In this document: positions 11,827 through 29,036 of the stretch, piece by piece | How the letters are laid out: every line of letters starts with the position of its first letter | Numbering within the stretch: position 1 is the first letter of the stretch | Assembly: GCA_947471565.1 (NCBI GenBank) | Contig: CANIVT010000001.1 | Location: 132,612-196,611 of the forward strand | Length of the DNA: 64,000 bases | Direction: 5' to 3' | Origin: Spartobacteria bacterium | GTDB taxonomy: Bacteria > Verrucomicrobiota > Verrucomicrobiia > Chthoniobacterales > UBA6821 | The notes under the pieces: model-generated | What the model was told of the DNA's origin: nothing | Databases searched by the model: none | The model's input: only the letters and a program-made list of their open reading frames with translations | Translations under genes and position numbers: made by a program

Positions 11827-13403
11827 GGGTTTGGCTGAGCGCTGCTACCGCCTGCCTGCTGCTCCTGCTGAACGGGTGTAGCGGGACCCGAAGCAGGGCA
11901 GATCTGACGCTCATCAACGGGGCCGAACCTGAGACGCTCGATCCCGCCCTGATCACAGGACAGCCTGAGGGAAGGATCGTGAATGCTCTCTTCGAGGGGC
12001 TTCTTCGTTTTGACCGCTTTGGGCACAGCGGTCCCGGCGTCGCCTCGTCGTGGGAGACCTCTTCCGACGGCCTGACCTACACCTTTCATCTCCGGCCAGA
12101 CGCATGCTGGAGCGATGGAAAGCCGGTGACGGCGGGTGACTTCCTCGAGTCATGGAGGCGTACCCTCGAACCGCAGACAGCGGCGGCCTACAGCTACCAG
12201 CTTTTCCCCGTGAGCGGAGCCGAGGAGTTTGCCAACGGGAAAACCGAGGATTTCTCCACCGTCGGTGTCAAAGCCCCCGATGACCGCACTCTCGTCGTCC
12301 ATCTGGCGCATGCCACCCCCTATTTCCTCGATCTCTGCGCCCTGCCTCCTCTCTATCCGGTGAGGACGGATCTCATCGCCGCTTACGGGGATGACTGGGT
12401 GAAGCCGGGGAAGTTTGTGGGCAACGGGGCTTACAGGTTGGAGTCTTGGCGCATCAATGACTCGATCCGCCTGACGAAAAATCCCTTCTTCTGGGACCAG
12501 GCGAATGTCCGCCTAGGGACGGTCGACGTCCTGCCGATCAGCAAGGCGAACGTCGCCTACAACTTCTACGCGGCCGGCCAGGCGGATCTGATCATGGACA
12601 AGGGGCTGGCCCCGCCCTCCCTGCTGGACGCCCTCAAGCAGGGTCCCGATTTTCATGCCGCGCCCTTCCTCGGTTCCTACTTCCTACGGTTCAACTGCTC
12701 CAAGCCCCCGTTCTCCGATCAGCGCGTCCGCAAGGCCTTCTCCATGGCGCTCGATAGGAAGAGGATCACCGACAAGATCACGCGGGCAGGAGAGCAGGAT
12801 GCCTTGAGCTTCGTGCCTCCGGGTCTGCCGGGGTATCAACCCCCTGAGGGACTTCCTGAGAATGCGAGCGAAGCGAGGCGTCTGCTTTCCGACGCAGGAT
12901 ATCCGGGCGGCAAGGGATTCCCCCTGACGACTTATCTCTACAGTGAGGGTGAACTCAACGAGGGAGTGGCTGTCGAACTTCAGTCGATGTGGAGCGAGGT
13001 GCTCGGCGTCCATATCCAACTAGCCCGTCAGGAGTGGAAAGTTTATCTCAACTCGCTCGGCTCCCTTGACTTCGGGATCGCCCGCTCCAGCTGGGTGGGG
13101 GATTACCCTGATCCCAATACCTTCCTCGATCTCTTTCTCTCCGGCGGCGGGAATAACCGCACGGGCTGGGCCGATCCGGCTTACGATTGGATGATCGCGT
13201 CTGCGGCGGGTGAGGGGAATCCCGCTGCTCGATTCGCTCGCCTCCGTTCGGCTGAGCAGTATCTTGTAAGGGATCAGGCACCGATCGCCCCGCTTTTCTT
13301 CTACGTGGGGATCCAGCTCTACGACGGCACGAAATTCGGAGGCATCGAGGCGAATGTCCTCGACGAGCATCCGATCCGGGAGATGTATCGGCGGGCTTTC
13401 TGA
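11823..13403 (+). CDS. ABC transporter substrate-binding lipoprotein, family 5 (peptide/nickel, OppA/DppA-like)
   Basis: The ATG at 11823 shares ATGA with the ldhA stop. Signal MRVWLSAATACLLLLLNGC. Typical SBP_bac_5 layout (SWxxSxDGLTYTFHLR..., WSDGKPVTAGDF). Confidence 0.75.
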   Translation: MRVWLSAATACLLLLLNGCSGTRSRADLTLINGAEPETLDPALITGQPEGRIVNALFEGLLRFDRFGHSGPGVASSWETSSDGLTYTFHLRPDACWSDGKPVTAGDFLESWRRTLEPQTAAAYSYQLFPVSGAEEFANGKTEDFSTVGVKAPDDRTLVVHLAHATPYFLDLCALPPLYPVRTDLIAAYGDDWVKPGKFVGNGAYRLESWRINDSIRLTKNPFFWDQANVRLGTVDVLPISKANVAYNFYAAGQADLIMDKGLAPPSLLDALKQGPDFHAAPFLGSYFLRFNCSKPPFSDQRVRKAFSMALDRKRITDKITRAGEQDALSFVPPGLPGYQPPEGLPENASEARRLLSDAGYPGGKGFPLTTYLYSEGELNEGVAVELQSMWSEVLGVHIQLARQEWKVYLNSLGSLDFGIARSSWVGDYPDPNTFLDLFLSGGGNNRTGWADPAYDWMIASAAGEGNPAARFARLRSAEQYLVRDQAPIAPLFFYVGIQLYDGTKFGGIEANVLDEHPIREMYRRAF

Positions 13404-13415
13404 AAAAGACTGATA

Positions 13416-13675
13416 GCCACAAGATGCACAGAAAGTACAGGGGGGGAGGGGTGTTAAAACGTTACAGTGTTAGAAAGTGAAAAAGTATCGAGAGACAAAC
13501 GGTTTGATGACGCCATCCTTCGCTCCATTCACGTCCCGCGCCTGGACATCTCAACACATGTTGGAGTCCAGTTGTTTGACCCCCCGTTTTAACGGTAAAA
13601 CATTTTAACCTTTTTAACTAATCCCCCATCTTCCTCCCGCCATTTTTGTAACTCTTGTGCCTTTTGTGGCCTACC
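13416..13675. repeat. MITE-like intergenic element: imperfect inverted arms built from 8-9-bp words
   Basis: The left arm is gccacaaga-tgcacagaaa-gtacag...gttaaaac-gttacagt-gttagaaa-gtgaaaaa. The reverse complement of the right arm reads ggccacaaaag-gcacaagag-ttacaaaaa...gttaaaaag-gttaaaat-gttttacc-gttaaaacg. Confidence 0.7.
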
Positions 13676-13685
13676 GCCTCATGAC

Positions 13686-14534
13686 ATGCTCCAAGCCTCG
13701 ATGAATCGACGTTTCGCTATCCAAGGCTGCACCGCGCTGGTGACCGGAGCCACCGCCGGACTCGGCGCCGAGTTTGCCCGCCAACTAGCCCCGAGAGCCC
13801 GCCATCTCATTCTCGTCGGTCGCCGCAAGGAACGGTTGGCCTCCCTGGCGGAATCGCTCCGAAAAGACTTCTCAGCCCTCTCCATCGAATCGATACCCGC
13901 AGATCTGGCCATGCCCGAGGAACGGGAGCGTCTCGCCTCACATATCATCCGCTCGGAGATCCCGCTCAACCTGCTCGTGAACAATGCCGGCCTGGGGGAT
14001 CTTGGCCCCTTTGACACGGCGGAATGGACGCGGCTGGAGCCGATGCTCTCGGTGAATGTCACAGCACTCACCCACCTGACTCATCTTCTGCTTCCGATGC
14101 TTCGGGCGCACCCTCCCTCGGCTGTCCTAAACGTCAGCTCCATCGCCGGCTTCTTTCCGCTGCCCGAGATGGCTGTGTATGCTGCGACGAAGGCCTATGT
14201 GACGAGCTTCAGCGAGGCGCTTCGCATGGAGTTGGAGCCCCACGGCGTGGTAGTGACGGCCCTTTGCCCGGGCCCGGTGCCGACGGAGTTTTTTGAGGTG
14301 GCAAGCCGCGAGGGCAAAACGATCCGTGCGATGGACCGCTCTCACCCCGCGTTTGCGTCGCCGCCGGAATTGGTGGTGCGTCAGGCTCTTGCCGGATTGG
14401 AGCGAAATCGACCCGGAGTCATCCCGAACTCCCTCCTGGCCGCCGTCGTGCGAACTGTCCGACTGCTTCCCTTCCCGTTAATTCGTGAGGCGATCCGCCT
14501 AGGAGCTGGTCCCAAGAAGCCTGTCGAAGAATAA
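13686..14534 (+). CDS. SDR-family NAD(P)-dependent oxidoreductase
   Basis: Cofactor motif TGATAGLG, NNAG, and catalytic YAATKAY (YxxxK). Confidence 0.75.
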   Translation: MLQASMNRRFAIQGCTALVTGATAGLGAEFARQLAPRARHLILVGRRKERLASLAESLRKDFSALSIESIPADLAMPEERERLASHIIRSEIPLNLLVNNAGLGDLGPFDTAEWTRLEPMLSVNVTALTHLTHLLLPMLRAHPPSAVLNVSSIAGFFPLPEMAVYAATKAYVTSFSEALRMELEPHGVVVTALCPGPVPTEFFEVASREGKTIRAMDRSHPAFASPPELVVRQALAGLERNRPGVIPNSLLAAVVRTVRLLPFPLIREAIRLGAGPKKPVEE

Positions 14535-14803
14535 GGATTTTTACAGGGATGAGGGGGATGGATTTGTTTTAAACCACGAAAGGCACGAACGGACACGAAA
14601 GTTGTATCTGCACGGAGATTGGGATCTCCCTCGGACTGCGGTTCGAACAGTCTCACAGCCTACAGTCTAAAAAGCTTCCCCAGGAACAACTCCTGTCGTG
14701 GTGATCTGATAGTCTCCGGTGGATTCGAACCATGAATTCGAATCCATTCCCTCCTCGCCACCTTCCTCTCTGACCGTTATCTGTCAGACACCGTTTTCCA
14801 CCC

Positions 14804-16408
14804 ATGGCCCGTCCCAAGAAATCTTCCTCTTCCTCTTCCAAGGACTCCTCGGCCAATCTCGGCTTTGAGGCGAAGCTCTGGCTCGCCGCTGACAAGCTCC
14901 GGAACAACATGGATGCGGGCGAGTACAAGCACGTCGTCCTTGGCCTCATCTTCCTGAAGTACATCTCCGACAGCTTCGAGGAGCATCATGCCAAGCTCAT
15001 TGAGGGAGAGGGTGAGTACGCCGGGGCCAATCCCGAGGACAAGGACGAGTACCTCGCTGCCAACGTCTTCTGGGTTCCGAAGGAGGCCCGCTGGTCCTTC
15101 CTCCAGGGGAGTGCCAAGCTCCCGTCGATCGGCAAGCTCGTCGACGACGCCATGGTCGCCCTCGAACGGGACAACCCCCGACTCAAGGGCTCCCTGAACA
15201 AGAACTACGGACGCGCCGACCTCGATAAGAACCGCCTCGGCGAGCTCATCGACCTCATCGGCTCCATCCAGCTCGTAGATGCCGCCAGCCGGTCCAAGGA
15301 CCTCCTTGGGCGTGTCTTTGAGTACTTCCTTACTCAGTTCGCCAGTGCCGAGGGTAAGAACGGCGGCCAATTCTACACACCCTCCTGCGTCGTCCGCCTC
15401 CTTGTCGAGATGGTCGCCCCGTACAAGGGACGCATCTACGACCCGGCCTGCGGCTCGGGCGGCATGTTCGTCCAGAGTGAGAAATTCGTGGAATCCCACG
15501 GCGGCAAGCTGGGCGACATCAGCGTCTACGGCCAGGAGAGCAACCCCACCACCCGCCGCCTCGCCATCATGAACCTCGCCCTCCGGGGCATCGAGGCAGA
15601 CTTTGGACCCGAGAATGCAGACACGTTCCGCCGACCACTCCACCCCGACCTCCGGGCTGACTTCGTCCTGGCCAATCCTCCCTTCAACGACTCCGACTGG
15701 TACCGCAAAGACGATGACGTCCGCTGGCAGTATGGCGTCCCGCCTAAGGGGAATGCGAACTTCGCCTGGGTTCAGCACTTCATTCACCACCTTGCCCCAA
15801 AGGGAATGGCCGGCTTCGTTCTCGCGAATGGCTCAATGTCCTCAAACCAATCCGGAGAGGGGGAAATCAGGAAGGCCCTGATTGAGGCAGACCTCGTCGA
15901 CTGCATGGTCGCACTCCCTGGACAGCTCTTCTACTCCACCCAGATCCCCGTCTGCCTCTGGTTCCTCACGAGGAGCAAGAACGATGGAAAGCGCCGTGAC
16001 CGCCGCAAGGAAACCCTCTTCATCGATGCCCGGAGGATGGGCACCCTCATCGACCGTGTCCACCGCGAGCTTACGGAGGCCGACCTCGTGAAGATCGTCT
16101 CCACTTACCACGCATGGAGAGGGGATGAGATTCCTCAGGTTTCAGGTCTCAAGTCTCAGGTTTCCTCGTCGGCCTACGCCGACATCCCCGGCTTCTGCAA
16201 ATCTGCCACCACCGCCGAGATCGCCGCCCATGGTCATGTCCTCACACCTGGCCGCTACGTCGGAGCCGAGGAGATCGAGGATGATGGAGAGCCCTTCGAG
16301 GAGAAAATGCCCCGACTTGTTGCCGAGCTGAATATCCAGTTCGCCGAGTCTGCGAAACTCGAGCTGGCCATCAAGGCCAACCTGAAAGGACTTGGGTATG
16401 AAATCTGA
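14804..16408 (+). CDS. hsdM: type I restriction-modification system, DNA methyltransferase subunit M
   Basis: HsdM N-terminal domain ([32 protein letters not shown]). AdoMet motif [10 protein letters not shown]. Catalytic LANPPFN. Confidence 0.9.
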
Positions 16409-16480
16409 GGGTTCTCTTGCAAAAACTGGCTTGCCAATTCTTGACAATTTATTGGTTCCGCAGGATGGTAAAGCCAGTAA

Positions 16481-16532
16481 ACCCGCCGGGCCTCTGTCGA
16501 AAGATACGCTATCTCACGGCGGGTCTTTTTTT
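16481..16532 (+). terminator. terminator-like hairpin plus T7 run between hsdM and the Abi gene
   Basis: acccgccg (16481-16488) pairs with cggcgggt (16517-16524) and is followed by c+ttttttt. The loop is long (28 nt), so function is uncertain. Confidence 0.35.
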
Positions 16533-16550
16533 GCCCAGGGGAAGTGAACG

Positions 16551-17474
16551 ATGAAAAACGAGAAGCGTCATCACACCATCCAAGAACAGGTTCAGCTACT
16601 TCTGGCACGAGGGCTTGAAGGAGATCCTGACCTCATGGCATCTCGTTTGGCCGTGGTGAACTACTACCGACTGAGCGGCTACTGGTTTCCAATGCAAATG
16701 GGGGCTAGTTACCCCGAAATCATCGGCGCTACTCCAGAAACATTCCGGCCCGGATCAACTTTTGAAAACGTCTGGAGGAGATATACCTTTGATCGGGAGT
16801 TGCGACTTCTTGTTCTGGATGCAATTGAGCGATTCGAAGTTGCAGTCAGAACTCAGCTTGCCTACCACCACGCTTTCATCCACGGCCCTTTTGGCTATGC
16901 GAATGACCCAAAATCTAGGCCGAAATTGAAGCGAGAGGATTTTGCCAAATTTTACGCCGGATTACTGGAAGAGTTGGGAAGGAGTAAGGAACAATGCATA
17001 AAACATTATTTTAAGAAATATGGTGATGAACATGATGTTCCGCCCATCTGGCAGGCTGTGGAAGTCATGAGCTTTGGGAACATCGTCACCCTCTATCGGC
17101 ACACAACCAGTAAAGTGAAACAGGGGGTAGCCAGCACCTTTGGTATTCCTGATACCGTGATGGAGTCCTGGTTGCTTTCTCTCAACACCATTCGCAACAT
17201 TTGCGCTCATCACTCCCGGCTTTGGAATCGAGAATTGGGCAATAGGCCGATGATCCCTCGCTTGGAGGAATTTCCCGACTGGCATCTCCCGGTTCAGATC
17301 CGTAATGAGAAATTGTTCGGGATTCTAACCATCCTGAAATACTCCATGAATAGAATTGCCCCTCAGAGCCAGTGGGCACTTCGCTTCCATCAATTTCTCG
17401 CCGACTATCCCGACATCCCCATTGCCGATATGGGGTTCCCTGAGAATTGGGATCAAAACCCGATCTGGAAATGA
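16551..17474 (+). CDS. Abi_2-family (AbiD/AbiF-like) abortive-infection protein
   Basis: HTIQEQVQLLLARGL..., VNYYRLSGYWFP and YTFDRELRLLVLDAIERFEVAVRTQLAY follow the Abi_2 family pattern. The gene is embedded between hsdM and hsdS. Confidence 0.7.
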   Translation: MKNEKRHHTIQEQVQLLLARGLEGDPDLMASRLAVVNYYRLSGYWFPMQMGASYPEIIGATPETFRPGSTFENVWRRYTFDRELRLLVLDAIERFEVAVRTQLAYHHAFIHGPFGYANDPKSRPKLKREDFAKFYAGLLEELGRSKEQCIKHYFKKYGDEHDVPPIWQAVEVMSFGNIVTLYRHTTSKVKQGVASTFGIPDTVMESWLLSLNTIRNICAHHSRLWNRELGNRPMIPRLEEFPDWHLPVQIRNEKLFGILTILKYSMNRIAPQSQWALRFHQFLADYPDIPIADMGFPENWDQNPIWK

Positions 17475-17504
17475 GCCACACCTTGAACATAGGAGGACTG
17501 GGGT

Positions 17505-18815
17505 ATGGTGACTGAGTTTCAACAGCACGAAGTCGCAAAACTCATCAGCGACGGAACGCTGATGATCAACGACGGCTATCGCGCCAAAAACAGCGAACTG
17601 TCACATGCTGGCATTCCTTTTGCCCGAGCGGGAAACATTGATGGGGGCTTTCATTTTGAGGACTCCGATCGGGTTCCTGCTGAGACTCTTGCAAAAGTGG
17701 GTCAAAAAAAGAGCCAGGCTGGAGATGTAGTTTTTACATCAAAGGGAACAGTAGGACGGTTTGCTTTTGTTCGAGAGCACACCCCAGAGTTTGTCTATTC
17801 GCCTCAACTCTGTTTCTGGCGCTCCTTAGATGCCTCCCTCATCGACCCTAGATGGCTCTTCTACTGGATGAATGGTCGGGAGTTCTATCTTCAGTTCAAA
17901 GGCGTATCAGGACAGACCGACATGGCAGAGTATGTCAGTCTTCGTGACCAGCGGGCCATGAAGATGACCCTCCCACCCCTCTCCGAGCAGAAGCGAATTG
18001 CGGAAGTGTTGGGAGCTCTGGATGACAAGATCGAACTGAACCTGAGGATGAATGCCACGCTTGAGGCCACCGCCCGAGCCCTCTTCCAGAGCTGGTTCAT
18101 CGACTTCGATCCCGTCCGCGCCAAGCTCGACGGCCGAAAGCCCTCCGGCATCGATCCAGCCACCGCAACCCTCTTCCCCGACTCCTTCGAAGAATCCCCC
18201 CTCGGCCACATCCCCAAAGGGTGGGAAGTCCGACCACTAGCCAGTTTAACAACATATCTTAGCCGTGGTATCGGCCCCTCATACCTTGAACAGGGAGGGG
18301 TGTGCGTTCTGAATCAGAAATGCGTTCGTGACCATCGAGTAGATTTTACCAAATCCCGAAGACACGATTCCGTAAAAAAGCCCATCAATAAGCGCGGTTT
18401 GCAGCTTCACGATGTCTTGGTGAACTCTACTGGAATGGGAACGCTTGGACGAGTAGCTCAACTCTTTTATTTGCCTGAAGCGACAATTGTAGACTCGCAC
18501 GTCACCATCGTGCGTGCGGCCTCAAATACTGATCCATTCTTTCTAGGCATTAACCTGACTGGACGTGAAACTGAGATCGAGGAGTTAGGGGAAGGTTCTA
18601 CCGGTCAAACTGAACTTAGCCGCATAAGGCTAGGAGGACTTAAACTCATTACTCCTTCGTTTGACCTTCAAAAGGCGTTTGGATCAGCAGTTGCTCCACT
18701 CCTGATGAGTATGTCTGAAAACGAAAAGCAATCCCGCACCCTATCCACCCTCCGCGACACCCTCCTCCCAAAACTCCTGAGCGGGGAGTTGAGCGCAAAA
18801 GCACTTCAGATATAA
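17505..18815 (+). CDS. hsdS: type I restriction-modification system, specificity subunit S
   Basis: Two target-recognition domains are separated by conserved helices (LPPLSEQKRIAEVLGALDDKIELN... and ...LSTLRDTLLPKLLSGEL). AGGAGG lies 9 nt upstream of the ATG. Confidence 0.85.
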   Translation: MVTEFQQHEVAKLISDGTLMINDGYRAKNSELSHAGIPFARAGNIDGGFHFEDSDRVPAETLAKVGQKKSQAGDVVFTSKGTVGRFAFVREHTPEFVYSPQLCFWRSLDASLIDPRWLFYWMNGREFYLQFKGVSGQTDMAEYVSLRDQRAMKMTLPPLSEQKRIAEVLGALDDKIELNLRMNATLEATARALFQSWFIDFDPVRAKLDGRKPSGIDPATATLFPDSFEESPLGHIPKGWEVRPLASLTTYLSRGIGPSYLEQGGVCVLNQKCVRDHRVDFTKSRRHDSVKKPINKRGLQLHDVLVNSTGMGTLGRVAQLFYLPEATIVDSHVTIVRAASNTDPFFLGINLTGRETEIEELGEGSTGQTELSRIRLGGLKLITPSFDLQKAFGSAVAPLLMSMSENEKQSRTLSTLRDTLLPKLLSGELSAKALQI

Positions 18816-18824
18816 AGGACTCTA

Positions 18825-19580
18825 GTGATTTCTTCCGTAACGATTGTTGAAGTGCTGGAAAGAGCCCAACAGGGAATCACCAAGCCGTTTCTTTGCCGAG
18901 GTGATGATGACAGGCTTTACTACGTTAAAGGGAGGGCAGCCGGTTGTCGTTCTCTCTGTTGTGAGTGGATTGCAGGGAATCTTGCTAGAGACGTAGGCTT
19001 ACCAATACCCGAGTTTTTGATTGCGGAAGTGCCAGAGACTTTGGTGAGGGATAGCTCCCATTCCGAAATCAATGATCTCGGTTCTGGCTTTGTATTTGCA
19101 TCTTTACGAGTTGAGGGAGCACAGGAAATAACATGGCCAGAAGCCCAGGGATGTAAGATAGATGAAAAGGCATTGGTTCTTATCTTCGATTGGTGGGTGC
19201 AAAACGAGGATCGCTCTCTTTCAGTACATGGAGGAAACCCTAACCTCCTCACAACACCTTATAAAAATAAGGATATTAAATTATGGGTTTTCGACTTTAA
19301 TCTGGCTTTTGATCTCAATTTCTCAGAGGAGAAATTCAGATCAAATCATCTATTTTATGACCTTCTGTCTGAATGGCCATTGGGTTTTCGCCAGAACGTG
19401 ACTGGAAAGATGAAGGTTGCTGTTGAGCGTCTTGATGAGCTGTTTGCAGCCCTTCCTGAGGAGTGGCTCTATTTTCAGGGGGATAAAAATCTTGCGGTGC
19501 ATTTGGATAAAAATCTGGTATCAGTTATTCTCTCCATACCGTTCACCGAACCCGACCGTTTTTGGAAAAGCCTGCTATGA
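18825..19580 (+). CDS. short HipA-like (PI3/4-kinase-fold) kinase, kinase core only
   Basis: 251 aa from a GTG 9 nt after hsdS. Motifs: RLYYVKG (Lys), FDWWVQNEDRSLSVHGGNPNLL (DRH-x-x-N-like catalytic loop) and LWVFDFNLAF (DFG-like). It lacks the HipA N-terminal domains. Confidence 0.6.
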   Translation: MISSVTIVEVLERAQQGITKPFLCRGDDDRLYYVKGRAAGCRSLCCEWIAGNLARDVGLPIPEFLIAEVPETLVRDSSHSEINDLGSGFVFASLRVEGAQEITWPEAQGCKIDEKALVLIFDWWVQNEDRSLSVHGGNPNLLTTPYKNKDIKLWVFDFNLAFDLNFSEEKFRSNHLFYDLLSEWPLGFRQNVTGKMKVAVERLDELFAALPEEWLYFQGDKNLAVHLDKNLVSVILSIPFTEPDRFWKSLL

Positions 19581-20410
19581 ACCGCCCTGTCAAATATGCC
19601 TGCAATTATGCGGTGCTTCGATTCCGTCCCTACCCGGAAACGGCAGAGTTCGTGAATCTGGGGGTTGTGATGCACTGCCCAATGCTGGGTTTTTTCGATA
19701 CTCAGATTGAAACCCATAAAGTCGCAAGGGTCACAAATTTCTTTCCAGAGTTAGATCGTAAGACCTTTGCGGCGGCACGGAGGACAATTTTGGAAGAGGT
19801 GGATCGGATTAAAACAATGATTGCTCATCAAAAAGATGTTGAGGCTGGGCGCATCTTATTTGGTGAGTTGGTTCGTCCGCGTGAAGCGGTATTCCGCTTT
19901 GGAGAAATTCGCACGATTCTAACGGATGATCCAACTACTCTGGCTGGACACCTTTTTGCACAATATGTGCTTCGTCATTTTGCACAGGTCAAAGAGTATC
20001 AAGAAAACGTGATGGCTGATCGCTTCTTTAAGGCATTAAAGGAGTTTCGCCCGAACCAAACTTTTCATCGCAATAAAGCCGTAGGGACAGAAGAGTATCG
20101 AATTCGGATTCCAATATGTTCTGATTGGCGGAATCCAGAAGGTGTTCCCATGCGAGCCGTCAAGCCGTTGGATCTACAGAAGAAAGAGACTACTGATATC
20201 ATTGAGCATGGCGATTTGTGGGCTCAGCGACTTCGTAGGTTACGAATGGTAGAAAGACTTCCAGAAAGATTAATTTTTGCCGTAAGGCATCCAAAAGATA
20301 TTGCCGGTAAAAAAGCGGCTGGAGATGTGTTGGCGTCATTAAAAGACGCAGGGGGAATTTTGGTGGACGCTGCAGATACAGAAAGAATTCTCGAATTAGC
20401 AGCAGACTAA
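19577..20410 (+). CDS. DUF3037-like protein, function unknown
   Basis: The ATG at 19577 overlaps the kinase stop (ATGA). The N-terminus VKYACNYAVLRFRPYPETAEFVNLGVVM fits the pattern Y.YAV.R..P....EF.N.GV that I associate with DUF3037. 277 aa. Confidence 0.6.
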   Translation: MNRPVKYACNYAVLRFRPYPETAEFVNLGVVMHCPMLGFFDTQIETHKVARVTNFFPELDRKTFAAARRTILEEVDRIKTMIAHQKDVEAGRILFGELVRPREAVFRFGEIRTILTDDPTTLAGHLFAQYVLRHFAQVKEYQENVMADRFFKALKEFRPNQTFHRNKAVGTEEYRIRIPICSDWRNPEGVPMRAVKPLDLQKKETTDIIEHGDLWAQRLRRLRMVERLPERLIFAVRHPKDIAGKKAAGDVLASLKDAGGILVDAADTERILELAAD

Positions 20411-20421
20411 ATTGACTGCTG

Positions 20422-20541
20422 ATGAGCGGTCTGAACGAATCCCATCTCGAGGAGGCCGCGCTGGAGTGGCTGGCTGAGCTGGGCTATGCCCTCGGCCACG
20501 GGCCCGACATGGCACTGGGGAAATTCCTGATTCCTGACTGA
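20422..20541 (+). pseudogene. hsdR 5' stub (39 codons), duplicate of the start of the intact hsdR
   Basis: [33 protein letters not shown]... compared with Hsd[33 protein letters not shown].... Nt 20431-20514 align with 23712-23795 at 78/84 identity, and all 6 differences are synonymous. The stub then diverges and stops. Confidence 0.85.
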
Positions 20542-20557
20542 TTAATAGGAGAATCCC

Positions 20558-21868
20558 ATGAGCGACGAGACCCCTCAGAAAGAACTCACCCGCGAGGAAC
20601 TCTACGAGAAGGTCTGGTCGACTCCAGGGACGAAACTAGCAGAGGAACTGGGGATCTCGGATGTGGCGATCACGAAGCGCTGCAAGAAGCTGAATGTCCC
20701 CCGTCCCTCCCGCGGCTACTGGGCAAAGCTGGCGGCAGGGAGGAAATCCCCGAAGCTCCCGCTCCCTCCCACACCTGATGAGGTCTTTCTCAAGTCGGCG
20801 GAGCAATCTGTCGGCAATGAGCTTTCCCTGCCTGAATCCATGGAATCCCTTCATGAGCTTGCCGCCGCGCTGATCGCTAAGATCAAGAAGGCACATGTCG
20901 ATTCTGACAAGCGAGCCAGCTTTTACGGTGATCGCACGCTACCGGAGGTCAAGGTGACGAAGGCTCAGGCGGAGCGAGCGGCACAGGCATTCCATGTGAT
21001 TCTTCAGAAGGTGGAGCCGCTGGGGATTACGTTCCGGAAGGCCCAGAGTTCCTATGGCCCCGCCTATTTCCAGAAAAGCCATGACCGGCTGTATCTCAAG
21101 ATCGAGGAGGAGATGATCGAGAAGACACCTACAGCGAGGCGGAGTCGGTATTCCGGATATGGCTATGGACTGAGGGAGGAGAAGGTTCCCTCGGGGCGGC
21201 TGATCTTTTCCCTCAAGACGGATCGCTACGGCTCGAGTGATGAGAAGGAGTTCACCGAGAGCGAGAGGCTGCCTCTCGATAAGGTGCTCGCCCGCGTGGT
21301 CAACGAGATCCGCAGTCACTATGTGGCCGCGCAGAAGCGGCGGAAGGCCGAGGCCATCCAGCGGGAGAAGGATCGGATCGAATCGGAAATTCGCCATAAG
21401 AAATATCTCGAGGAGAGGGCCATCAAGGAAGCAGAGGAGGCGAAGAAGAATCATGCCAAGGCGCTGAAGAAAACTGCCAAGAAGCGGCAGGATGATTTCC
21501 TGAAGGCCTCCGAGTGGTGGAGGATGTTCGAGTCGGCAAATGCATTCATCGTGGCGTGTGAGCACCGATGGAAGGAGAGCCAGAGTGGGGAGCTAACCTC
21601 CGAGCAGGTGGAGTGGATCACATGGGCGCGTAACATCTCAAATGACCTATCCCCGTTTGCCTTGGGGTACCCTGAGCCATCCAAGGATGGAGCCTTCAAC
21701 CCAGAAGAGGTGCCTTTCGGAGGCCCCTATCCTGAGATACGTGACTTTCCCCGGCCCCCGACGATGCCGAAGATCCCGCCTCCTGTCGTCGAGCAGAGAG
21801 GCTATGGCTACTCCTCAACCCCAGCGCCAACCCGCTACCCCTTCTGGCTCAGGCATCAGGGCCGATGA
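20558..21868 (+). CDS. hypothetical protein: N-terminal HTH-like motif, K/E-rich coiled-coil, Pro-rich tail
   Basis: 436-aa ORF with AGGAGA upstream. The N-terminus is ELYEKVWSTPGTKLAEELGISDVAITKRCKKLNVPRPSRGYWAK. The central part is KRRKAEAIQREKDRIESEIRHKKYLEERAIKEAEEAKK. No enzymatic motif recognised. Confidence 0.55.
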   Translation: MSDETPQKELTREELYEKVWSTPGTKLAEELGISDVAITKRCKKLNVPRPSRGYWAKLAAGRKSPKLPLPPTPDEVFLKSAEQSVGNELSLPESMESLHELAAALIAKIKKAHVDSDKRASFYGDRTLPEVKVTKAQAERAAQAFHVILQKVEPLGITFRKAQSSYGPAYFQKSHDRLYLKIEEEMIEKTPTARRSRYSGYGYGLREEKVPSGRLIFSLKTDRYGSSDEKEFTESERLPLDKVLARVVNEIRSHYVAAQKRRKAEAIQREKDRIESEIRHKKYLEERAIKEAEEAKKNHAKALKKTAKKRQDDFLKASEWWRMFESANAFIVACEHRWKESQSGELTSEQVEWITWARNISNDLSPFALGYPEPSKDGAFNPEEVPFGGPYPEIRDFPRPPTMPKIPPPVVEQRGYGYSSTPAPTRYPFWLRHQGR

Positions 21869-21973
21869 GGGTCATTATCACAAATCCCTGATGGAGAGAT
21901 TCATGAGACGAAACTACTAATTATAAACGTTTTAGTAGTTGGCTAGTAGTTACAGGACTATACGGAATATATA

Positions 21974-22019
21974 TCGCCATAACTGGCGAAATATCTTGAT
22001 TAAAGCGATCAATTCGCCA
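21974..22019. promoter_or_regulatory. putative HipB operator half-sites (TCGCCA) upstream of hipB
   Basis: TCGCCA-taac-TGGCGA is an inverted repeat at 21974-21989. A third TTCGCCA lies at 22013-22019, 14 nt before the hipB ATG, in an AT-rich stretch. Confidence 0.3.
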
Positions 22020-22032
22020 TATTTGACGCATT

Positions 22033-22398
22033 ATGAAGATCTCTCTGGAGATGAATGATGGTACGATCCTCCGGGAGCTCGGGGAGAGGCTTGCCCATGC
22101 CCGCTTGGAGAGGAATCTGACGCAGGCGGCGCTGGCCGAGCAGGCCGGAGTCGCCAAGAGGACACTCGAGCGACTGGAGTCGGGTGAGGTGGCGGCTCAG
22201 CTCTCCGCGTTTCTCCGTGTCTGCCGGGTGCTTGGTCTGCTCGATCGCCTCGACGCCCTAATCCCGGAAGCCAAGCCCGGCCCGATGGAGTTGCTGAGGC
22301 TTCAGGGTAGGAAGAGGCAACGTGCCTCCAAGGCCTCTGTCCAGAAATCTGCCAGGGTCAAGGAGGGCTCCCGCTGGAGCTGGGGGGATCCGTCATGA
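22033..22398 (+). CDS. hipB: XRE-family HTH antitoxin (HipB-like)
   Basis: LRELGERLAHARLERNLTQAALAEQAGVAKRTLERLESG is a classic XRE HTH. The stop overlaps the hipA start (ATGA, 22395-22398). Confidence 0.75.
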   Translation: MKISLEMNDGTILRELGERLAHARLERNLTQAALAEQAGVAKRTLERLESGEVAAQLSAFLRVCRVLGLLDRLDALIPEAKPGPMELLRLQGRKRQRASKASVQKSARVKEGSRWSWGDPS

Positions 22399-23699
22399 TC
22401 GCGGAGGTCCGGCTCTGGGGCAGGCGGATCGGTGCTCTCTCTATGGATGAAGGGCGGGAGGTTGCGGCTTTCCAGTATGATCCGGAGTTCGCTGGGAGCG
22501 GGATTGAGATCGCTCCGCTGATGATGCCGCTGGGCGAGCGGGTGCATGAGTTCCCCGCGTTGTCCCGGGAGTCGTTTCACGGTTTGCCCGGAATGCTCGC
22601 GGATTCCCTGCCGGATAAGTTCGGCAATGCGCTGATCAATGCGTGGCTGGCAACGCAAGGGCGGACGCCGGGGAGCTTCGGTGCGCTGGAGCGTCTCTGC
22701 TACACGGGTTCCCGCGGGATGGGTGCGCTGGAGTATCTTCCCGCGCTCGGGCCGAGGCCGCGTCGTGCGGTGAAGGTGCGCATCGATGCCCTGGTCGATC
22801 TGGCCTCGGAGGTGCTCTCCCATCGGGGGGATCTGCAGGGGCATTTTCATGACGAGGGTAAGGCGAAGGCGCTGGCCGATATCCTGCGCGTGGGGACGTC
22901 GGCGGGCGGGGCCCGGGCGAAGGCTGTTATCGCTTGGAATGAGGAGACTCACGAGGTGCGCTCCGGACAGATCGAGGCCGGGGATGGCTTTGGCTACTGG
23001 CTGCTGAAGTTTGACGGGGTCTCGGGCAACCGTGACAAGGAGAATGAGGATCCCCGGGGATACGGGGTGACCGAGTATGCCTATCACCTTATGGCATGCG
23101 CGGCGGGGATCGCGATGAGCGAGTGTCGTCTGATGGAAGAGGGAGAGCGGAGGCATTTCATGACGCGGCGGTTCGACAGGCTGCCGGGTGGGGAGAAGCT
23201 GCACATGCAGTCGCTGGCGGCGCTGGCACATCTCGATTTCAACCGTGCCGGGGCTCATTCATATGAGCAGGCCTTTCTGGTGATCCAGCAACTCGGTCTG
23301 CCGATGGCCTCGGTGGAGGAGCAGTTCCGCCGGATGGCCTTCAACATCGTTGCCCGCAATCAGGACGACCATGTGAAGAATATCGCCTTCCTGATGGATC
23401 AGGATGGGGGGTGGTCGCTTTCGCCTGGCTTCGACCTGACCTACAGCTTCAATCCCGGAGGTGCCTGGACGGCCTCGCACCAGATGACGATGAACGGAAA
23501 GAGGGAGGGGTTCACGAGGGGGGATTTCGACGCCTGTGCCAAGGCGGCTGGAATGAAACGTGGGCGTGCAGGCACAATCCTCGACGAGGTGATCGCCGCC
23601 GTGAAAGACTGGCCACGCTTCGCCATACAGGCGAAGCTCTCGGAGTCGACGATGAGCAAGATCCAGAAGGTCCACCTACTCGATTTTCCGAAACAGTAA
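22395..23699 (+). CDS. hipA: type II toxin-antitoxin system HipA-family serine/threonine kinase toxin
   Basis: 434 aa. N-terminal coupling domain (VRLWGRRIGALSMDEG...FQYDPEF). GLPGMLADSLPDKFGN. Kinase core with ARNQDDHVKNIAF and LSPGFDLTYS. Confidence 0.85.
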   Translation: MIAEVRLWGRRIGALSMDEGREVAAFQYDPEFAGSGIEIAPLMMPLGERVHEFPALSRESFHGLPGMLADSLPDKFGNALINAWLATQGRTPGSFGALERLCYTGSRGMGALEYLPALGPRPRRAVKVRIDALVDLASEVLSHRGDLQGHFHDEGKAKALADILRVGTSAGGARAKAVIAWNEETHEVRSGQIEAGDGFGYWLLKFDGVSGNRDKENEDPRGYGVTEYAYHLMACAAGIAMSECRLMEEGERRHFMTRRFDRLPGGEKLHMQSLAALAHLDFNRAGAHSYEQAFLVIQQLGLPMASVEEQFRRMAFNIVARNQDDHVKNIAFLMDQDGGWSLSPGFDLTYSFNPGGAWTASHQMTMNGKREGFTRGDFDACAKAAGMKRGRAGTILDEVIAAVKDWPRFAIQAKLSESTMSKIQKVHLLDFPKQ

Positions 23700-23705
23700 C
23701 CGCCC

Positions 23706-26700
23706 ATGTCCCTGAACGAATCCCATCTCGAGGAAGCCGCGCTGGAGTGGCTGGCCGAGCTCGGCTATGCCCTCGGCCATGGACCCGACATGGCTCCGGG
23801 AGAGGTTGCTGCCGAGCGGGAGACCTTCTCCGAGGTGGTACTGAAGGGGCGTCTACGTGAGGCGATCCATCGACTCAATCCCGCGATCCCTGCCGAGGCA
23901 CGCGAGGAGGCTCTCAGGAAGGTCCTGCGCCACGAGACGACCTCCCTAATCGGGAATAACCGGGCCTTCCACCATCATCTGCGCGACGGGGTGCCGGTGG
24001 AGTATCGCCGGGCTGATGGATCTATCGCTGGGGATCGGGTACGGCTGGTGGACTTCGCTGATCCTGCCGCCAATGACTGGCTGGCGGTGAATCAGTTCAC
24101 CGTGATCGAGGGCCAGCATAACCGCCGTCCCGATGTGATCCTCTACCTGAACGGTCTGCCTCTCGCCGCGATCGAGCTCAAGAATGCTGCCGATGAGGAG
24201 GCGACGATCTGGAGCGCCTTCTCCCAGCTCCAGACCTACAAGGCGGAGATTCCCTCCCTGATGAACTACAACGAGATCCTCGTGGTCTCCGATGGTCTGC
24301 AGGCCCGGATCGGATCGCTGACGGCGAATCAGGAATGGTTCAAGGTCTGGCGCACGATCGATGGTGACGGGGATGCTCCCAAGAGCGCCCTGGAGCTGGA
24401 GGTGCTGATCCGGGGAGTCTTTGACCGGAAGCGCTTCCTCGGGCTGCTGGAGCATTTCGTGACCTACGAGGAGGACCCTGACAACGGGTCGGTCCATAAG
24501 ATCATTGCTGGGTATCATCAGTTCCACGCGGTGAATGCCGCCGTCGAGGAGACGATCCGTGCAAGCGGGATGGGCGACGAGAACCGAGCCAAGGAAGGAG
24601 ATGGGGCCTACTGGTCGGGTCGCATGGAGGAGGGAGCGCCGGGTGACCGTCGCGCCGGGGTGGTCTGGCACACGCAGGGAAGCGGCAAGAGTTTCTCGAT
24701 GCTTTTTTATGCCGGACGGATGGCCCGTCACCCTGCGATGCAGAATCCGACCCTCATTGTGCTGACCGACCGGAATGATCTCGACGATCAGCTCTTCGGC
24801 CAGTTTCAGCGCTGCCATGAGACGCTGGGTCAGATGCCCATTCAGGCAGAGAGCAGGGAGCATCTCCGAGAACTCCTCAATCGTGCCAGCGGCGGAGTCA
24901 TTTTCACAACGATTCACAAATTCGCCGCTGAGAAAGACTCGGCAAAGAAAGCCCTCTCCGAGCGCCGCAATATCGTCGTCATCGCCGACGAGGCCCATCG
25001 TTCCCAATACGACCTGATAGATGGATTCGCCCGCGACATGAGGGATGCCGTGCCCCATGCCTCGTTCATCGGATTCACCGGGACGCCGATCGAGAAGGCG
25101 GATGCCAATACGCGGGCGATCTTCGGCAACTACATCTCCGTCTATGACATCCAGCGGGCCGTGGCTGATAAAGCAACAGTCCCAATCTACTATGAGAGCC
25201 GGATTGCCAAGCTGGGGCTCAATGCCTCGGAGCTGCCGAAGCTCGACGCGGAGTTCGAGGAGATCACCGAGGGCGAGGAGGAGGGGAGTCGGGAAAAGCT
25301 CAAGACGAAGTGGGCCGCGCTGGAGGCTCTGGTCGGAGATCCGAAGAGGATCGCCCTGATCGCCAAGGATCTCGTGGAGCACTTCGAAAAGCGTCTCGAG
25401 GCGATGGATGGCAAGGCGATGGTCGTCTGCATGAGCCGCCGCATCTGCGTCGATCTCCACGAGGCGATCCTGAAGCTTCGCCCCGAGTGGGCCAGTGCCA
25501 AGGATGACGATTCCGAAGGCGAGAAGGGGAAAGCGTGCGTGGTGAAGGTCGTCATGACCGGAAGTGCCAGCGATGGCCCCGAGTGGCAGCAGCACATCCG
25601 CAACAAGGAGAAGCGCCGAAAGCTCGCCAACCGCTTCAAGGACAGCAAGGACCCCTTCCGTATCGTGATTGTCCGAGACATGTGGCTGACGGGATTCGAC
25701 GCTCCGTGCCTTCACACCATGTATGCCGACAAGCCGATGCGCGGCCACGGGCTTATGCAGGCGATCGCTCGGGTGAACCGGGTCTTCCGCGACAAACCGG
25801 GTGGACTGATTGTCGATTACCTCGGGCTAGCCGATCAACTTAAGCAGGCGCTGGCCACCTACACGGAGAGCGGAGGCCAGGGTCATCCCACCTATGACGA
25901 GAAGCAGGCCATCGCGATCCTTCTGGAGAAGCACCAGATCGCCTCCGACATGCTCCATGGCTACGACTGGTCCAAGTGGGCGACGGGTTCCTCGGCAGAA
26001 AAAATCAAACTCATCCCCGGAGCGCAGGAGCATATTCTGGAACAGGAGGACGGGAAGAAACGCTTCGTCCAGGTCGTGACGGAACTCTCGCGGGCCTTTG
26101 CCCTTTCGGCGGCCAGCGATGAGGCCACGGCCATCCGGGATGACGTCGCCTTCTTCCAGGCCGTACAGGTGGCCCTCAACAAGCAGGAGAGTAAGAGCGG
26201 TAAGAATCCCGAGCAACTCGACGCGGCCGTTCGCCAGCTTGTCTCCAAGGCGATTACGACAGAGGGACAGGTGATCGATGTCTTTACGGCGGCGGGACTA
26301 CCCCGTCCTGACATAGGCATCCTCTCGGACAAGTTCCTCGCCGAGGTGAGGGGGTTGAAGCACAAGAACGTCGCCGCCGAACTGCTGGAGAAGCTCCTCA
26401 AAGATGAGCTCAAGGTCCGATCCAAGCGGAATTTCGTCCAGGCCAAGCAATTCAGCGATAAGCTGAAGCAGACCCTCAACGGCTACCATAACCGCGCCAT
26501 CTCCACGATGGAGGTGATCGAGGAGCTGATCAAGCTGGCCAAGGAACTCGACTCCGCCACCAAGCGGGGCGTCGATCTCGGGCTCACCGATGACGAGGTG
26601 GCTTTCTACGATGCACTCGCCGCCAATGAGTCAGCCGTCCGAGCGCTCGGCAATGAGCAACTCAAGGTGATCGCCAGCGAACTCATCACTCAGGTACGCA

Positions 26701-26864
26701 AGAGTGCCACGATCGACTGGACCCTCCGGGAAAGTGCCCGAGCCAAGATCCGCGTCATCGTGAAGCGCATCCTTAACAAATACGGCTACCCACCAGACCT
26801 CCAGGACCCAGCCGTCCAAACCGTCCTCCAACAGGCCGAACTCCTCTGTGCTGAGGTGGTGTAA
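23706..26864 (+). CDS. hsdR: type I restriction-modification system, endonuclease/helicase subunit R
   Basis: 1052 aa. N-terminal nuclease region ([19 protein letters not shown]). Walker A-like [12 protein letters not shown] box [10 protein letters not shown]. Motif VI-type QAIARVNR. Confidence 0.9.
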
Positions 26865-26947
26865 CGGTAACACATCACCTTTACTGAGTTTCAGATTCAA
26901 AATCCCCCTGCATTGACTGGGCACCTCTCTTCGCAGAGAATCGACCT

Positions 26948-27982
26948 GTGAAAAGCGTTTCCAGATGGTCCGCGCGTGAAATTGATCCCAGGGCAAACAC
27001 TGCCTTCCTTTCTGCCATCGAGCTGATCGGTCCCGAGCTCTACTCTGTCGAGGAGAGGATCCGTGAGCAGTCCAAGGCCGTGGATGCCGGCATCGAGCAC
27101 TATTTTGAGTATGCGATCGGAGGGAGTGGCAAGCGTCTGCGTCCCGCGCTGGCACTGCTGGCCGGGGGGGCCACCGGGCGCGTGGTCTCCGACCATGTCG
27201 ATCTGGCCGTCATTCTTGAACTCATCCACATCGCGAGCCTCGTCCATGACGACATCATGGATGGCGCCGACAAGAGGCGCGATCGCCCCACCCTCAACGC
27301 CAAATGGGGTAATTCCCTGACCGTGCTGGTCGGTGATGTCCTGTTCGCCCATGCGCTACGACTTTCCACCAAGTTTCCGAACGCCGTCTCGAGGCGTATC
27401 GCGGATGCGGCGGCTGATGTCTGCACGGGGGAGATCCTCCAGACGCAGAAGAGGTTCGATCTGAATCTGCCGCTCTCCGAGTATTACCGGATGGTCCAGA
27501 TGAAGACGGGTGCCCTCTTCTCAGCTGCCACAGAGCTCGGGGCCTACCTGAGCGGCTCCTCTCCCACGGTGATCGGGGCGCTCCGCACCTACGGTGATAA
27601 GGTCGGTATTGCCTATCAGGTGCTCGATGACTGCATCGATCTCGTCGGTGACGAGGAGATGATCGGCAAGACACTCGGAACGGACCTGTCCTGCGGCAAG
27701 TTCACCCTGCCGGTCCTCCTGTTGCTCCAGCGCTCCACCCCTGCACAGCGTGAGGAACTGAGTTCGATGCTTCTGGCCGACGGTGGAATGGATGCCACGG
27801 TTCTTCTGGAACTCGTCCGATCGCGCGGTGCCCTGACAGCTGCTGTCGCCGCTGGCACCTTGCTGGTCGATGAGGCGGAGGCCGCTCTGTCCGTGGTTCA
27901 GGAGAACCGCCATGCCGAGGCCTTGCGCTCCATGACGGAATATCTGCGGGGGGTCTTCGGTTCTTTGGATACGGCGGGCTGA
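26948..27982 (+). CDS. polyprenyl diphosphate synthase (long-chain, IspB-like)
   Basis: First Asp-rich motif LVHDDIMDG and second YQVLDDCID. GKRLRP. GTG start. Confidence 0.8.
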   Translation: MKSVSRWSAREIDPRANTAFLSAIELIGPELYSVEERIREQSKAVDAGIEHYFEYAIGGSGKRLRPALALLAGGATGRVVSDHVDLAVILELIHIASLVHDDIMDGADKRRDRPTLNAKWGNSLTVLVGDVLFAHALRLSTKFPNAVSRRIADAAADVCTGEILQTQKRFDLNLPLSEYYRMVQMKTGALFSAATELGAYLSGSSPTVIGALRTYGDKVGIAYQVLDDCIDLVGDEEMIGKTLGTDLSCGKFTLPVLLLLQRSTPAQREELSSMLLADGGMDATVLLELVRSRGALTAAVAAGTLLVDEAEAALSVVQENRHAEALRSMTEYLRGVFGSLDTAG

Positions 27983-28027
27983 GGGGAGTTGCTGGCTGTA
28001 GTGGGTAACGGGTGCCCTTTTCTCCAA

Positions 28028-28219
28028 GGTGAGTTAGAACCGTTAAAATGTTAGAAGGGTTACAAAGGGCTGAATGAGGCCCCTTGCTCTGGTTCCTCGA
28101 GAAATGCAGGCGCTGCAAGTTCTCGGAATGTTCTGCACCAAAGAATGAGATCGGTATGCTTCGGATCTACCTTGCAACCTTTTAACGATTCTAACCCTTT
28201 TAACATTTCAGCATTCACC
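28028..28219. repeat. inverted pair of GTTAnAA word arrays flanking a ~108-bp core
   Basis: The left array is gttagaacc-gttaaaat-gttagaagg-gttacaaaggg. The reverse complement of the right array is gttaaaagg-gttagaatc-gttaaaag-gttgcaagg. Same word family as 13453-13484 and 56462-56494. Confidence 0.7.
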
Positions 28220-28297
28220 TTCCCCTTGCAGAGTGCGGTGACCGCAGTAGGTTGCCGGGTGATCTCCCCGTGTTTTCGTGAACTTCCCGAGGAGGAG

Positions 28298-28954: not shown

Positions 28955-29036
28955 GCAATAGGTGATGGGGAATGGGGAATGGGGGGGAGACTGTTAGACT
29001 GAAGGCTAAAGACTGTTAGGAAAGATCGGGGGGGAT

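Follow-up and report, generated by a model that had tools for sequence, protein, structure and literature searches.

Defence genes have been found embedded in operons of type I restriction-modification (R-M), BREX, DISARM and Hma systems (Payne et al. 2024, bioRxiv 10.1101/2024.01.29.577857), and further embedded cases are PrrC in the EcoprrI locus and TgvAB in VPI-2 of V. cholerae (PMC11411939). This 'guilt by embedding' in type I R-M or BREX-like operons is used to discover new systems, and the route by which the embedded genes enter has so far been unexplained. In the text of Payne et al. 2024 (bioRxiv 10.1101/2024.01.29.577857) the word 'recombination' is absent, and systems with pseudogenes were left out; our full-text literature searches returned papers on embedded genes and no description of hsdR or hsdM stubs or of an embedding mechanism. 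Here we analysed a stretch of 64,000 nucleotides (nt) from a Spartobacteria bacterium (contig CANIVT010000001.1, positions 132,612 to 196,611, forward strand; hereafter the window), in which a short open reading frame (ORF) at 20422-20541 lies between cargo genes of a type I R-M operon. This ORF is the remnant of an hsdR 5' end from another allele. An earlier note, made from the letters of the window, had read it as a footprint of cassette exchange by homologous recombination; this reasoning was largely right and too narrow, since the stub of the window exemplifies a recombinational process of accretion and shuffling that is widespread.

The hsdR stub of the window

The Pfam scan of the window bore out the gene order given in the earlier note, and all ten operon features lie on the + strand:

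14804..16408, + strand: hsdM, the left conserved gene, type I methyltransferase (Pfam N6_Mtase 1.4e-103, HsdM_N 4e-25)
16551..17474, + strand: Abi_2/AbiD cargo gene between hsdM and hsdS (Pfam Abi_2 1.2e-54; PADLOC AbiD 8.6e-66)
17505..18815, + strand: hsdS, specificity subunit (Pfam Methylase_S, one stretch reported)
18825..19580, + strand: HipA_2-type kinase, first gene of a cargo pair (Pfam HipA_2 4.8e-71; PADLOC PDC-M66A)
19562..20410, + strand: DUF3037 protein, second gene of the cargo pair (Pfam DUF3037 4.4e-23; PADLOC PDC-M66B)
20422..20541, + strand: stub ORF of 39 amino acids (aa), with its TGA stop at 20539-20541
20422..20520, + strand: hsdR-derived part of the stub, former hsdR codons 1-33, direct repeat of 23706-23800
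20521..20557, + strand: tail and leader past the breakpoint, with AAATTCCTGATTCCTGAC, the stub stop and a ribosome binding site (RBS), AGGAGA, at 20547-20552
20558..21868, + strand: 436-aa 'orphan' cargo gene (no Pfam or PADLOC match)
21912..21951, + strand: AT-rich palindrome, AACTACTAATTATAAACGTTTTAGTAGTT plus GGCTAGTAGTT, from alignment with related loci
22033..22398, + strand: hipB-like helix-turn-helix (HTH) gene (Pfam HTH_31, HTH_3)
22395..23699, + strand: hipA kinase toxin gene (Pfam HipA_C 1.8e-49, Couple_hipA)
23706..26864, + strand: intact hsdR, 1052 aa (Pfam HSDR_N, SWI2_SNF2, ResIII, T1R_D3-like, T1RH-like_C)

By their Pfam domains, hsdM, hsdS and the full-length hsdR make up a type I R-M system, and the hipB-like gene and hipA, which overlap by 4 nt (22395-22398), have the arrangement of a HipBA toxin-antitoxin pair. 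The stub does not qualify as a functional HsdR, as it comprises codons 1-33, six unrelated codons and a stop, and the nuclease and helicase domains are absent. Its ATG follows the DUF3037 stop after 11 nt, and the intact hsdR, which supplies the other repeat copy with its first 95 nt, has its ATG 6 nt after the hipA stop.

The earlier note had counted 78 identical positions out of 84 between 20431-20514 and 23712-23795, and this was reproduced in an ungapped alignment, in which all six differences were again synonymous third-position changes (GAG/GAA, GCT/GCC, CTG/CTC, CAC/CAT, GGG/GGA and GCA/GCT). The homology does end sharply, as had been stated, although at 20520 (codon 33) and not at codon ~30; the last two homologous codons up to this point hold one replacement (CTG Leu versus CCG Pro, codon 32) and one synonymous change. 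The stub matched a nucleotide profile of hsdR with E = 5e-16 in nhmmer, from model position 6, and a repeat search of 13000-29000 returned the stub/hsdR pair as the longest direct repeat (89 nt, 92%, copies 3281 nt apart). The probability of obtaining six synonymous changes out of six was 2-6e-4 if all changes were neutral on the stub, and 0.0035-0.009 if the intact hsdR took synonymous changes only while the stub decayed neutrally. Because the divergence over these 28 codons is synonymous only, neutral decay in place was rejected. Comparison with related loci (numbered below with the prefix L) supported the view that the stub comes from a different hsdR allele under purifying selection, since the hsdR 5' ends of L107 (95.6% identity) and L108 (95.5%) are closer to it than its own hsdR (92-93%).

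Within the tail, TGACTGATTAATAG at 20535-20548 places stops in all three frames directly before the orphan RBS, which would insulate the orphan from upstream reading frames. Consensus scans for an internal promoter or terminator at the stub remained at background level, and Rfam returned no known RNA family in 13000-29000.

A junction common to four loci

Homologues of the orphan at 87-98% identity were found in other type I loci of related Verrucomicrobia, in other chromosomal neighbourhoods. In L093, L099 and L110 the orphan is preceded by an ORF of 37-38 codons with breakpoint and tail as in the window, and the four loci have in common the junction ...CCGGGG|AAATTCCTGATTCCTGACTGA followed by the RBS and the orphan ATG, that is, the string ...GGGGAAATTCCTGATTCCTGACTGA-RBS-ATG(orphan). 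The starts of the stubs are locus-specific, each contiguous with its own upstream gene: in the window the DUF3037 stop is followed by 11 nt and then ATGAGCGGTCTGAAC, in L093 the left partner is a Mrr_cat gene having an ATGA overlap with the stub, in L099 a DprA-like gene, and in L110 an ORF of 159 aa. One junction with four left partners implies crossovers inside the hsdR-derived 99 nt, in agreement with the proposal that this stretch acted as a crossover zone. The sequences flanking L093 match another part of the window at 78-83% identity, an indication that L093 belongs to a different species. The stub-orphan junction is older than the lineage of the window and was not made there.

Versions in which the orphan follows hsdS with no stub occur in L096, L107 and L108, and two of them occupy the same chromosomal sites as stub-bearing versions (L107 with L093, L108 with L099). 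Both parental arrangements that the earlier note had predicted were found. A locus in which orphan and hipBA directly abut a full hsdR exists in L107 (hsdS-orphan-hipB-hipA-hsdR, no stub), where 2334-8639 matches 20556-26860 of the window at 91.4% in one continuous collinear block of 6.3 kb; the orphan-hipB-hipA-hsdR block of the window is continuous with L110 as well. Loci in which the HipA_2 and DUF3037 pair abuts a full hsdR are L066, L034 and L084, and there the hsdR starts (MDRLNES, MSALNES and MSGRLNES, respectively) are one or two codons longer than the usual MSLNES. The stub of the window, with its start MSGLNES, has an extra codon like these DUF3037-linked starts.

The phylogenetic incongruence proposed as a check for hsdM/hsdS against hsdR was assessed as pairwise identities of hsdM against those of hsdR in 45 loci, and it was evident: the correlation was r = 0.37, and the nearest neighbour was the same in only 7 of the 45. 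Among the four close loci compared, hsdR groups the window, L093 and L099 at 96-97%, which are the stub carriers within this comparison (L110 also carries the stub and stands outside it), and the grouping by hsdM differs, with L096 joining L099. The nucleotide identity of the hsdM of the window to those of L093, L096 and L099 was 87-91%. Within hsdS, a central region (17973-18229) and a conserved 3' region (18729-18795) gave blastn matches of 85-97% to otherwise unlike hsdS alleles.

Two histories had been offered in the earlier note, of which the first, a left and a right part of the locus joined by recombination, holds in so far as the locus of the window is recombinant, with the correction that the junction predates the lineage of the window. 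The second, a 3.2-kb block of orphan and hipBA arriving with its own homology arm, was not sustained, because what follows the orphan on its right differs from locus to locus without an intervening stub (hipBA, DUF3800, HTH with DUF3800, or Fic). The travelling unit consists instead of the 3' part of the stub, the leader and the orphan (20431-21951 of the window). Between orphan and hipB no remnant of a stub was detected, and the palindrome at 21912-21951 is found there instead. It forms the right end of the block common to the window, L093, L096 and L108, is present in two copies in L096 (11340-11440), and may serve as an operator, mark the border of a cassette or have a structural role. The hipB-like HTH protein of the window has 81% aa identity to the product of the HTH gene that follows the orphan in L099.

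The orphan itself is a candidate new defence gene. A search returned 283 homologues at E <= 0.001, and among the at least 120 of these listed, the named ones were from Verrucomicrobia. Its AlphaFold2 model (pLDDT 81.6) has an HTH-like N-terminus, an alpha/beta domain, a helix of 100 residues and a proline-rich tail, and no fold in the PDB matched the model at E <= 0.001. Outside type I slots, the orphan was seen in surroundings with defence-type genes, beside RhuM (L102, L103) and beside a DUF4011 helicase with a NucS-like gene (L105).

As a separate observation, the whole hsdM-hsdR unit (14753-26863 in the window) lies at different chromosomal sites in the window and in L093, L096, L099, L107 and L108. 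Its homology sets in no more than 50 nt upstream of the hsdM ATG and runs as far as the hsdR stop, and its identity of 87-93% is higher than the 78-83% of the L093 flank, the sole housekeeping flank in common with the window; no integrase or flanking repeat was seen around the unit in these loci. In the window, a 21-nt inverted repeat (13599-13619 and 28032-28052, AACATTTTAACCTTTTTAACT and AGTTAGAACCGTTAAAATGTT, 86% complementary), which may be due to chance, encloses an SDR gene, the entire R-M operon and a polyprenyl synthase gene.

Stubs and joints across the type I family

A search for relatives of hsdR gave 80 loci at 72-80% aa identity, spread over Planctomycetota, Verrucomicrobiota, Proteobacteria, Acidobacteriota, Cyanobacteria and other groups. 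In every locus with both genes visible, the gap between hsdS and hsdR was at least 982 nt. The 263 co-oriented ORFs in these slots fell into 180 clusters and included RhuM, Fic, deaminase-HATPase_c_4, Macro, HipA-like with HIRAN, GmrSD and Schlafen/AlbA_2 proteins; AbiD, PDC-M66A/B (HipA_2 with DUF3037), RhuM/PDC-S05, Fic/SoFic and GmrSD among the cargo are embedded families already known. In L035 (3360-4996) a hipB-hipA pair, whose HipA is 73% identical to that of the window, lies upstream of hsdM, outside the hsdS-hsdR slot, and the same cargo can therefore sit outside the operon.

With a nucleotide profile of the first 100 codons of hsdR, about 26 extra copies of the hsdR 5' end were detected, distributed over 16 of 71 loci, with up to three stubs per locus (three in L020 and L055). 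Every copy is oriented like hsdR (+ strand) and starts from the hsdR start codon, at model positions 1-11. They are 13 to 183 codons long and end at codons 13, 19, 24, 27, 29, 30, 33, 35, 38, 53-66 and 183; since the lengths vary to this extent, there is no fixed recombination site. No internal or 3' fragments of hsdR turned up in the hsdS-hsdR slots. Each stub starts exactly at the place expected for a real hsdR behind the cargo gene before it, frequently overlapping that gene by ATGA, and is followed by new cargo and then by the next stub or the intact hsdR. Isolate genomes carry stubs as well, for example that of Synechococcus sp. 1G10 (L091).

A before-and-after pair was provided by L064 and L061. 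The match between L064 596-2542 and L061 8253-10199 (88.7%) covers a cargo gene (C33) and the first 199 nt of hsdR, which in L064 are the stub, up to codon 66; beyond it, L064 has a RhuM gene and then an hsdR only 74% identical to that of L061. L064 thereby displays the homologous anchor and the novel joint of homology-facilitated illegitimate recombination, and so does the window, with the leader of the orphan attached to hsdR codon 33. In the orthologous loci L052 and L055 the stub or handle segments are 97-99% identical, the RhuM between them 68% and the hsdR bodies 88%, so that exchange breakpoints cluster at the handles. That the first ~30 codons of hsdR are a specially conserved handle, as the earlier note had suggested, was contradicted by an alignment of 76 hsdR genes, in which pairwise aa identity was 0.68 there versus 0.80 in the rest of the gene, and codon sharing 0.56 versus 0.535. 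The handle is a matter of position and operon geometry, not of special sequence.

In several stubs the hsdR-derived part continues in frame into the 3' end of hsdS (L043, L058, L055 and L091, with E from 1.7e-11 to 1.7e-5). The joint in L043 comes after 13 hsdR codons and reads RDTLLPKLLSGELSV... (E = 1.7e-11), while in L058, L055 and L091 about 62 hsdR codons are followed by SRxLAxLRDTLLPKLLSGEL; L077 has the same ~62-codon joint with the frame broken. This joint at about codon 62 is thus found in four loci of different phyla, with different cargo after each. Weaker cases of hsdS tails are L015, L079, L064 and L055, and possible microhomologies at the joints ('AAL' in L043, 'GEL' in L079) are suggestive only. 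The hsdS-tailed stubs are chimeric HsdR-N::HsdS-C mini-ORFs, and the cassettes thus have the 3' end of hsdS as their left border and the 5' end of hsdR as their right border. For the 37-nt tail of the window no convincing match to a donor was obtained, either by fuzzy search of the fetched loci or in the hsdS 3' ends of L096, L107 and L108.

The mirror image, 3' stubs of hsdM, was present in 9 of 62 loci (L057 3810-3917, L080 6078-6182, L081 1651-1788, and L016, L054, L055, L058, L082 and L085). These stubs, of 19-36 codons, lie after cargo and just before hsdS, always include the hsdM C-terminus (...AKLEQAIKANLRGLGY), and are more alike one another than the resident hsdM. The window has none, the gap between Abi_2 and hsdS being only 30 nt.

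Several further observations concern the stubs and their surroundings. A GC-rich mini-repeat containing a hairpin is inserted in stubs of different phyla (L052 113-295; L055 4919-5104 and 6532-6714; L074 7401-7571; L081 5386-5545; and L077, in hsdR and hsdS); its translation is LLRSAPLNYGGQVGEQCRVAPTLIPAFSQREKGKE or ...TLTRPLSR..., often with the frame open, a similar 'PSPRPSPNGRGRS' insert occurs within the intact hsdR and hsdS of L077, and Rfam gave no match for these elements in the stubs. In L077 9354-10004 (cluster C18, with L076 and L083) a 30-codon hsdR 5' stub is fused in frame to ~186 residues, which cluster with a 702-aa Schlafen/AlbA_2-HATPase_c_4 cargo protein (L083); apparently a stub has been attached here to a cargo gene that was truncated. 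A RhuM leader with a perfect palindrome, CTATCCGGAATTCCGGATAG, is common to L081 5545-5597, L057 8425-8478 and L052 340-397 (L051-type), and is joined to different hsdR codons (~66 in L081, ~29-33 in L057). Among housekeeping genes of L102 (794-3038) RhuM, a 20-codon stub and the orphan are found in a region with no hsdM, hsdS or hsdR, and in L103 (10001-12577) the orphan, RhuM and hsdR fragments (codons 1-51 and 121-149) adjoin a PKS gene. It would seem from these two loci that cargo and stubs can persist without a working R-M system.

Origin of the stubs and comparison with known systems

We consider it probable, and the best reading, that the stub goes back to an illegitimate join between two loci which was later spread by ordinary homologous recombination. 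The 39-codon ORF would be the stranded 5' end (codons 1-33) of an hsdR that once stood directly after HipA_2-DUF3037. Two type I loci would have been fused in a single illegitimate join, at hsdR codon 33 in the first and ~37 nt before the orphan in the second, which was presumably of the L107 type (hsdS-orphan-...-hsdR). The shared junctions and the mosaics show that the junction was afterwards passed on by descent and also transferred from locus to locus through ordinary homologous recombination, the left crossovers falling within the 99 nt that derive from hsdR and the right ones within the orphan or hsdR. The locus of the window is therefore a recombinant, whose left part comprises hsdM to DUF3037 with the start of hsdR, and whose right part comprises the 3' end of the stub, the orphan, hipBA and hsdR.

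More generally, the hsdS-hsdR slot is always occupied across this type I family and is bounded by the conserved stretches at the hsdS 3' and hsdR 5' ends. New cargo would be added or swapped at the slot boundaries, with nested hsdR 5' stubs staying behind, many of them as in-frame HsdR-N::HsdS-C mini-ORFs. Each junction class probably arose by a rare illegitimate join between two type I loci, and the resulting blocks would have spread and been reshuffled via homologous recombination at hsdR 5', hsdS 3' and cargo homologies. The stubs lie inside the first codons of hsdR because the upstream cargo abuts or overlaps the hsdR start and there is no intergenic space. Only a join inside hsdR would spare the upstream gene, and long stubs would probably be unstable or harmful.

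Several points weigh against this reconstruction. The joining event itself is inferred, and the 37-nt tail has no traceable donor. Three routes would look alike, namely homology-facilitated illegitimate recombination on DNA uptake, unequal crossing-over, and fusion of tandem loci by deletion. For RecA-dependent recombination, 99 nt with 88-95% identity make a short arm. Common descent of the right-hand part, with left parts swapped later, could also explain in part why the junction is shared, which would still require crossovers in the stub but reverses what 'arrived'. The absence of a stub between orphan and hipBA shows that cargo can change without such a trace. The data consist almost entirely of contigs assembled from metagenomes. 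Plasmids revealed no vector, their relatives of the hsdR subfamily reaching at most 55% identity in alignments that start at about residue 25.

A possible, tentatively held explanation of why stubs are retained is that they act as translational adaptors: ribosomes starting at the old hsdR start codon would read through the stub and stop beside the start of the new gene, thereby coupling its translation to the operon. This idea concerns retention and is compatible with a recombinational origin. The ATG and an open frame through the hsdR-derived part are kept in 26 of 28 stubs. An overlap of the stop with the start of the following gene (ATGA) was seen for 6 of the 28, compared with 3 of 56 in the other two frames, and a position within -4 to +6 nt of that start for 10 of 28, compared with 6 of 56. 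The hsdS-tail joints are in frame in 7 of 8 matches, or in all of ~6 junction classes, and in the window the stub stop is 16 nt before the orphan ATG, with the RBS between. The open frames, the in-frame joints and the stop positions give modest evidence of selection for a translational relay to new cargo. However, the stubs are not all independent, two of them (L077, L081) have internal stops, some carry inserted mini-repeats, and replacements occur at residues conserved in real HsdR, such as G25D in L093 and L099; moreover, the stops in all three frames before the RBS of the window mean that no one reading frame is required there. If such a relay were true, it would explain how operon polarity was preserved during accretion.

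A dedicated site-specific cassette system, integron-like or a target-restoring island, in which a recombinase inserts cargo at a set site within the 5' end of hsdR and provides a new 5' end in its place, appears very improbable. It would account for the direct repeats of target-gene ends that flank co-oriented, promoterless cargo in serial arrays, for the palindromes at some cassette borders (21912-21951, and the one before RhuM), and for the joining of the same cargo leader to different hsdR codons. The breakpoints, however, are scattered from codon 13 to 183, in place of the fixed crossover core of dusA-type elements, no common core was noticed at the junctions aligned, no motif search over all stub ends having been made, and the tails consist of normal hsdS 3' ends. 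Pfam detected no domain of an integrase, transposase or other recombinase in the locus of the window (nine locus ORFs and the upstream neighbour, 13686-26864) or in the called genes of related loci, and the orphan, judged by its model, seems to have no recombinase-like fold. As for the palindromes, none was seen to be common among the cassettes aligned, a comparison that did not include a search with an attC model.

Local tandem duplication of the hsdR start in the lineage of the window, followed by decay of the upstream copy, would agree with a direct repeat 3281 nt apart in one operon, and is scarcely credible: it was ruled out by the synonymous nature of all six differences (P <= 0.009), by the occurrence of the junction in loci of other species at other chromosomal sites, by the greater similarity of the stub to the hsdR of other genomes than to its own, and by the different start context (MSGLNES versus MSLNES). 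An assembly or binning artefact joining the locus versions of two strains, conceivable given the metagenome source and the existence of strain variants of the locus, can be dismissed as having a negligible probability, because the identical arrangement was recovered in at least 24 contigs, among them contigs of 278 kb, from independent ENA, Logan and NCBI assemblies, with separate samples and assemblers, and like stubs occur in dozens of unrelated assemblies and in isolate genomes.

Returning to the illegitimate join spread by homologous recombination, the stubs can be regarded as physical footprints of cargo gain and exchange at conserved-gene ends. The loci yielded no dedicated recombinase, so host homologous recombination may suffice. 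Junctions, once they exist, are reused across species and phyla, and one locus can display several acquisitions in order. The hsdR 5' stubs, hsdM 3' stubs and HsdR-N::HsdS-C mini-ORFs constitute a simple sequence signature, which could serve to delimit cassettes, to reveal defence candidates such as the 436-aa orphan, and to date or order acquisitions. It is predicted that short coding-end homologies would be enough for the experimental insertion of cargo. A wider and rather doubtful proposal is that the hsdR 5' and hsdS 3' ends, together with the hsdM 3' end for the other slot, are universal docking arms, and that type I operons are self-extending carriers of defence genes, in which illegitimate joins would make HsdR-N::HsdS-C linkers that spread across phyla as inter-cassette adaptors, their frame kept for translation relay. 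If this were true, it would amount to an integron-like accretion on host homologous recombination alone, in which the order of stubs is the order of acquisition.

The likeness to the embedded defence genes described so far lies in the co-oriented defence cargo between hsdM, hsdS and hsdR; while those studies catalogue the cargo, the stubs, shared junctions and handle mosaics of the family studied here bear on how embedding arises. In rhs and cdiA loci, orphan or displaced toxin-immunity modules are located downstream of the rhs and cdiA genes. There, as here, a variable module arrives with a piece of a conserved gene, the displaced piece stays, and the arrays keep homology for further recombination. 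In our loci, in contrast, what is left stranded is the start of a gene for a conserved enzyme, the modules are separate genes and not alternative tips of one protein, and the stubs precede the intact gene. Homology-facilitated illegitimate recombination, reportedly described by de Vries and Wackernagel in 2002 and Prudhomme et al. in 2002 from transformation experiments, resembles the present case in having one homologous anchor (hsdR) and one non-homologous joint. By this analogy it would be the simplest way for foreign DNA to strand a short resident 5' fragment; however, it is not known as a recurrent builder of operons, and here the joint itself becomes a homology arm. Integron arrays share with our loci the serial, co-oriented and largely promoterless cargo at a fixed point and the reuse of short inter-cassette sequences, but no intI was found in the genes scanned and no attC-like consensus was seen among the cassettes aligned, and the joints are variable and derive from the coding ends of hsdR and hsdS. 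In the tandem lpl paralogues of S. aureus, evolutionary units are reported to span the 3' part of one ORF, a spacer and the 5' part of the next (PMC2568036), and the exchanged unit likewise runs from a gene end to the next gene start, with recombination in conserved coding stretches; the lpl genes described there are paralogues of one family, whereas here unrelated cargo lies between the hsdS 3' and hsdR 5' ends. Taken as analogies, the rhs/cdiA modules, homology-facilitated illegitimate recombination and integrons would seem to be the closest in logic, and none of them appears to fit as family membership.

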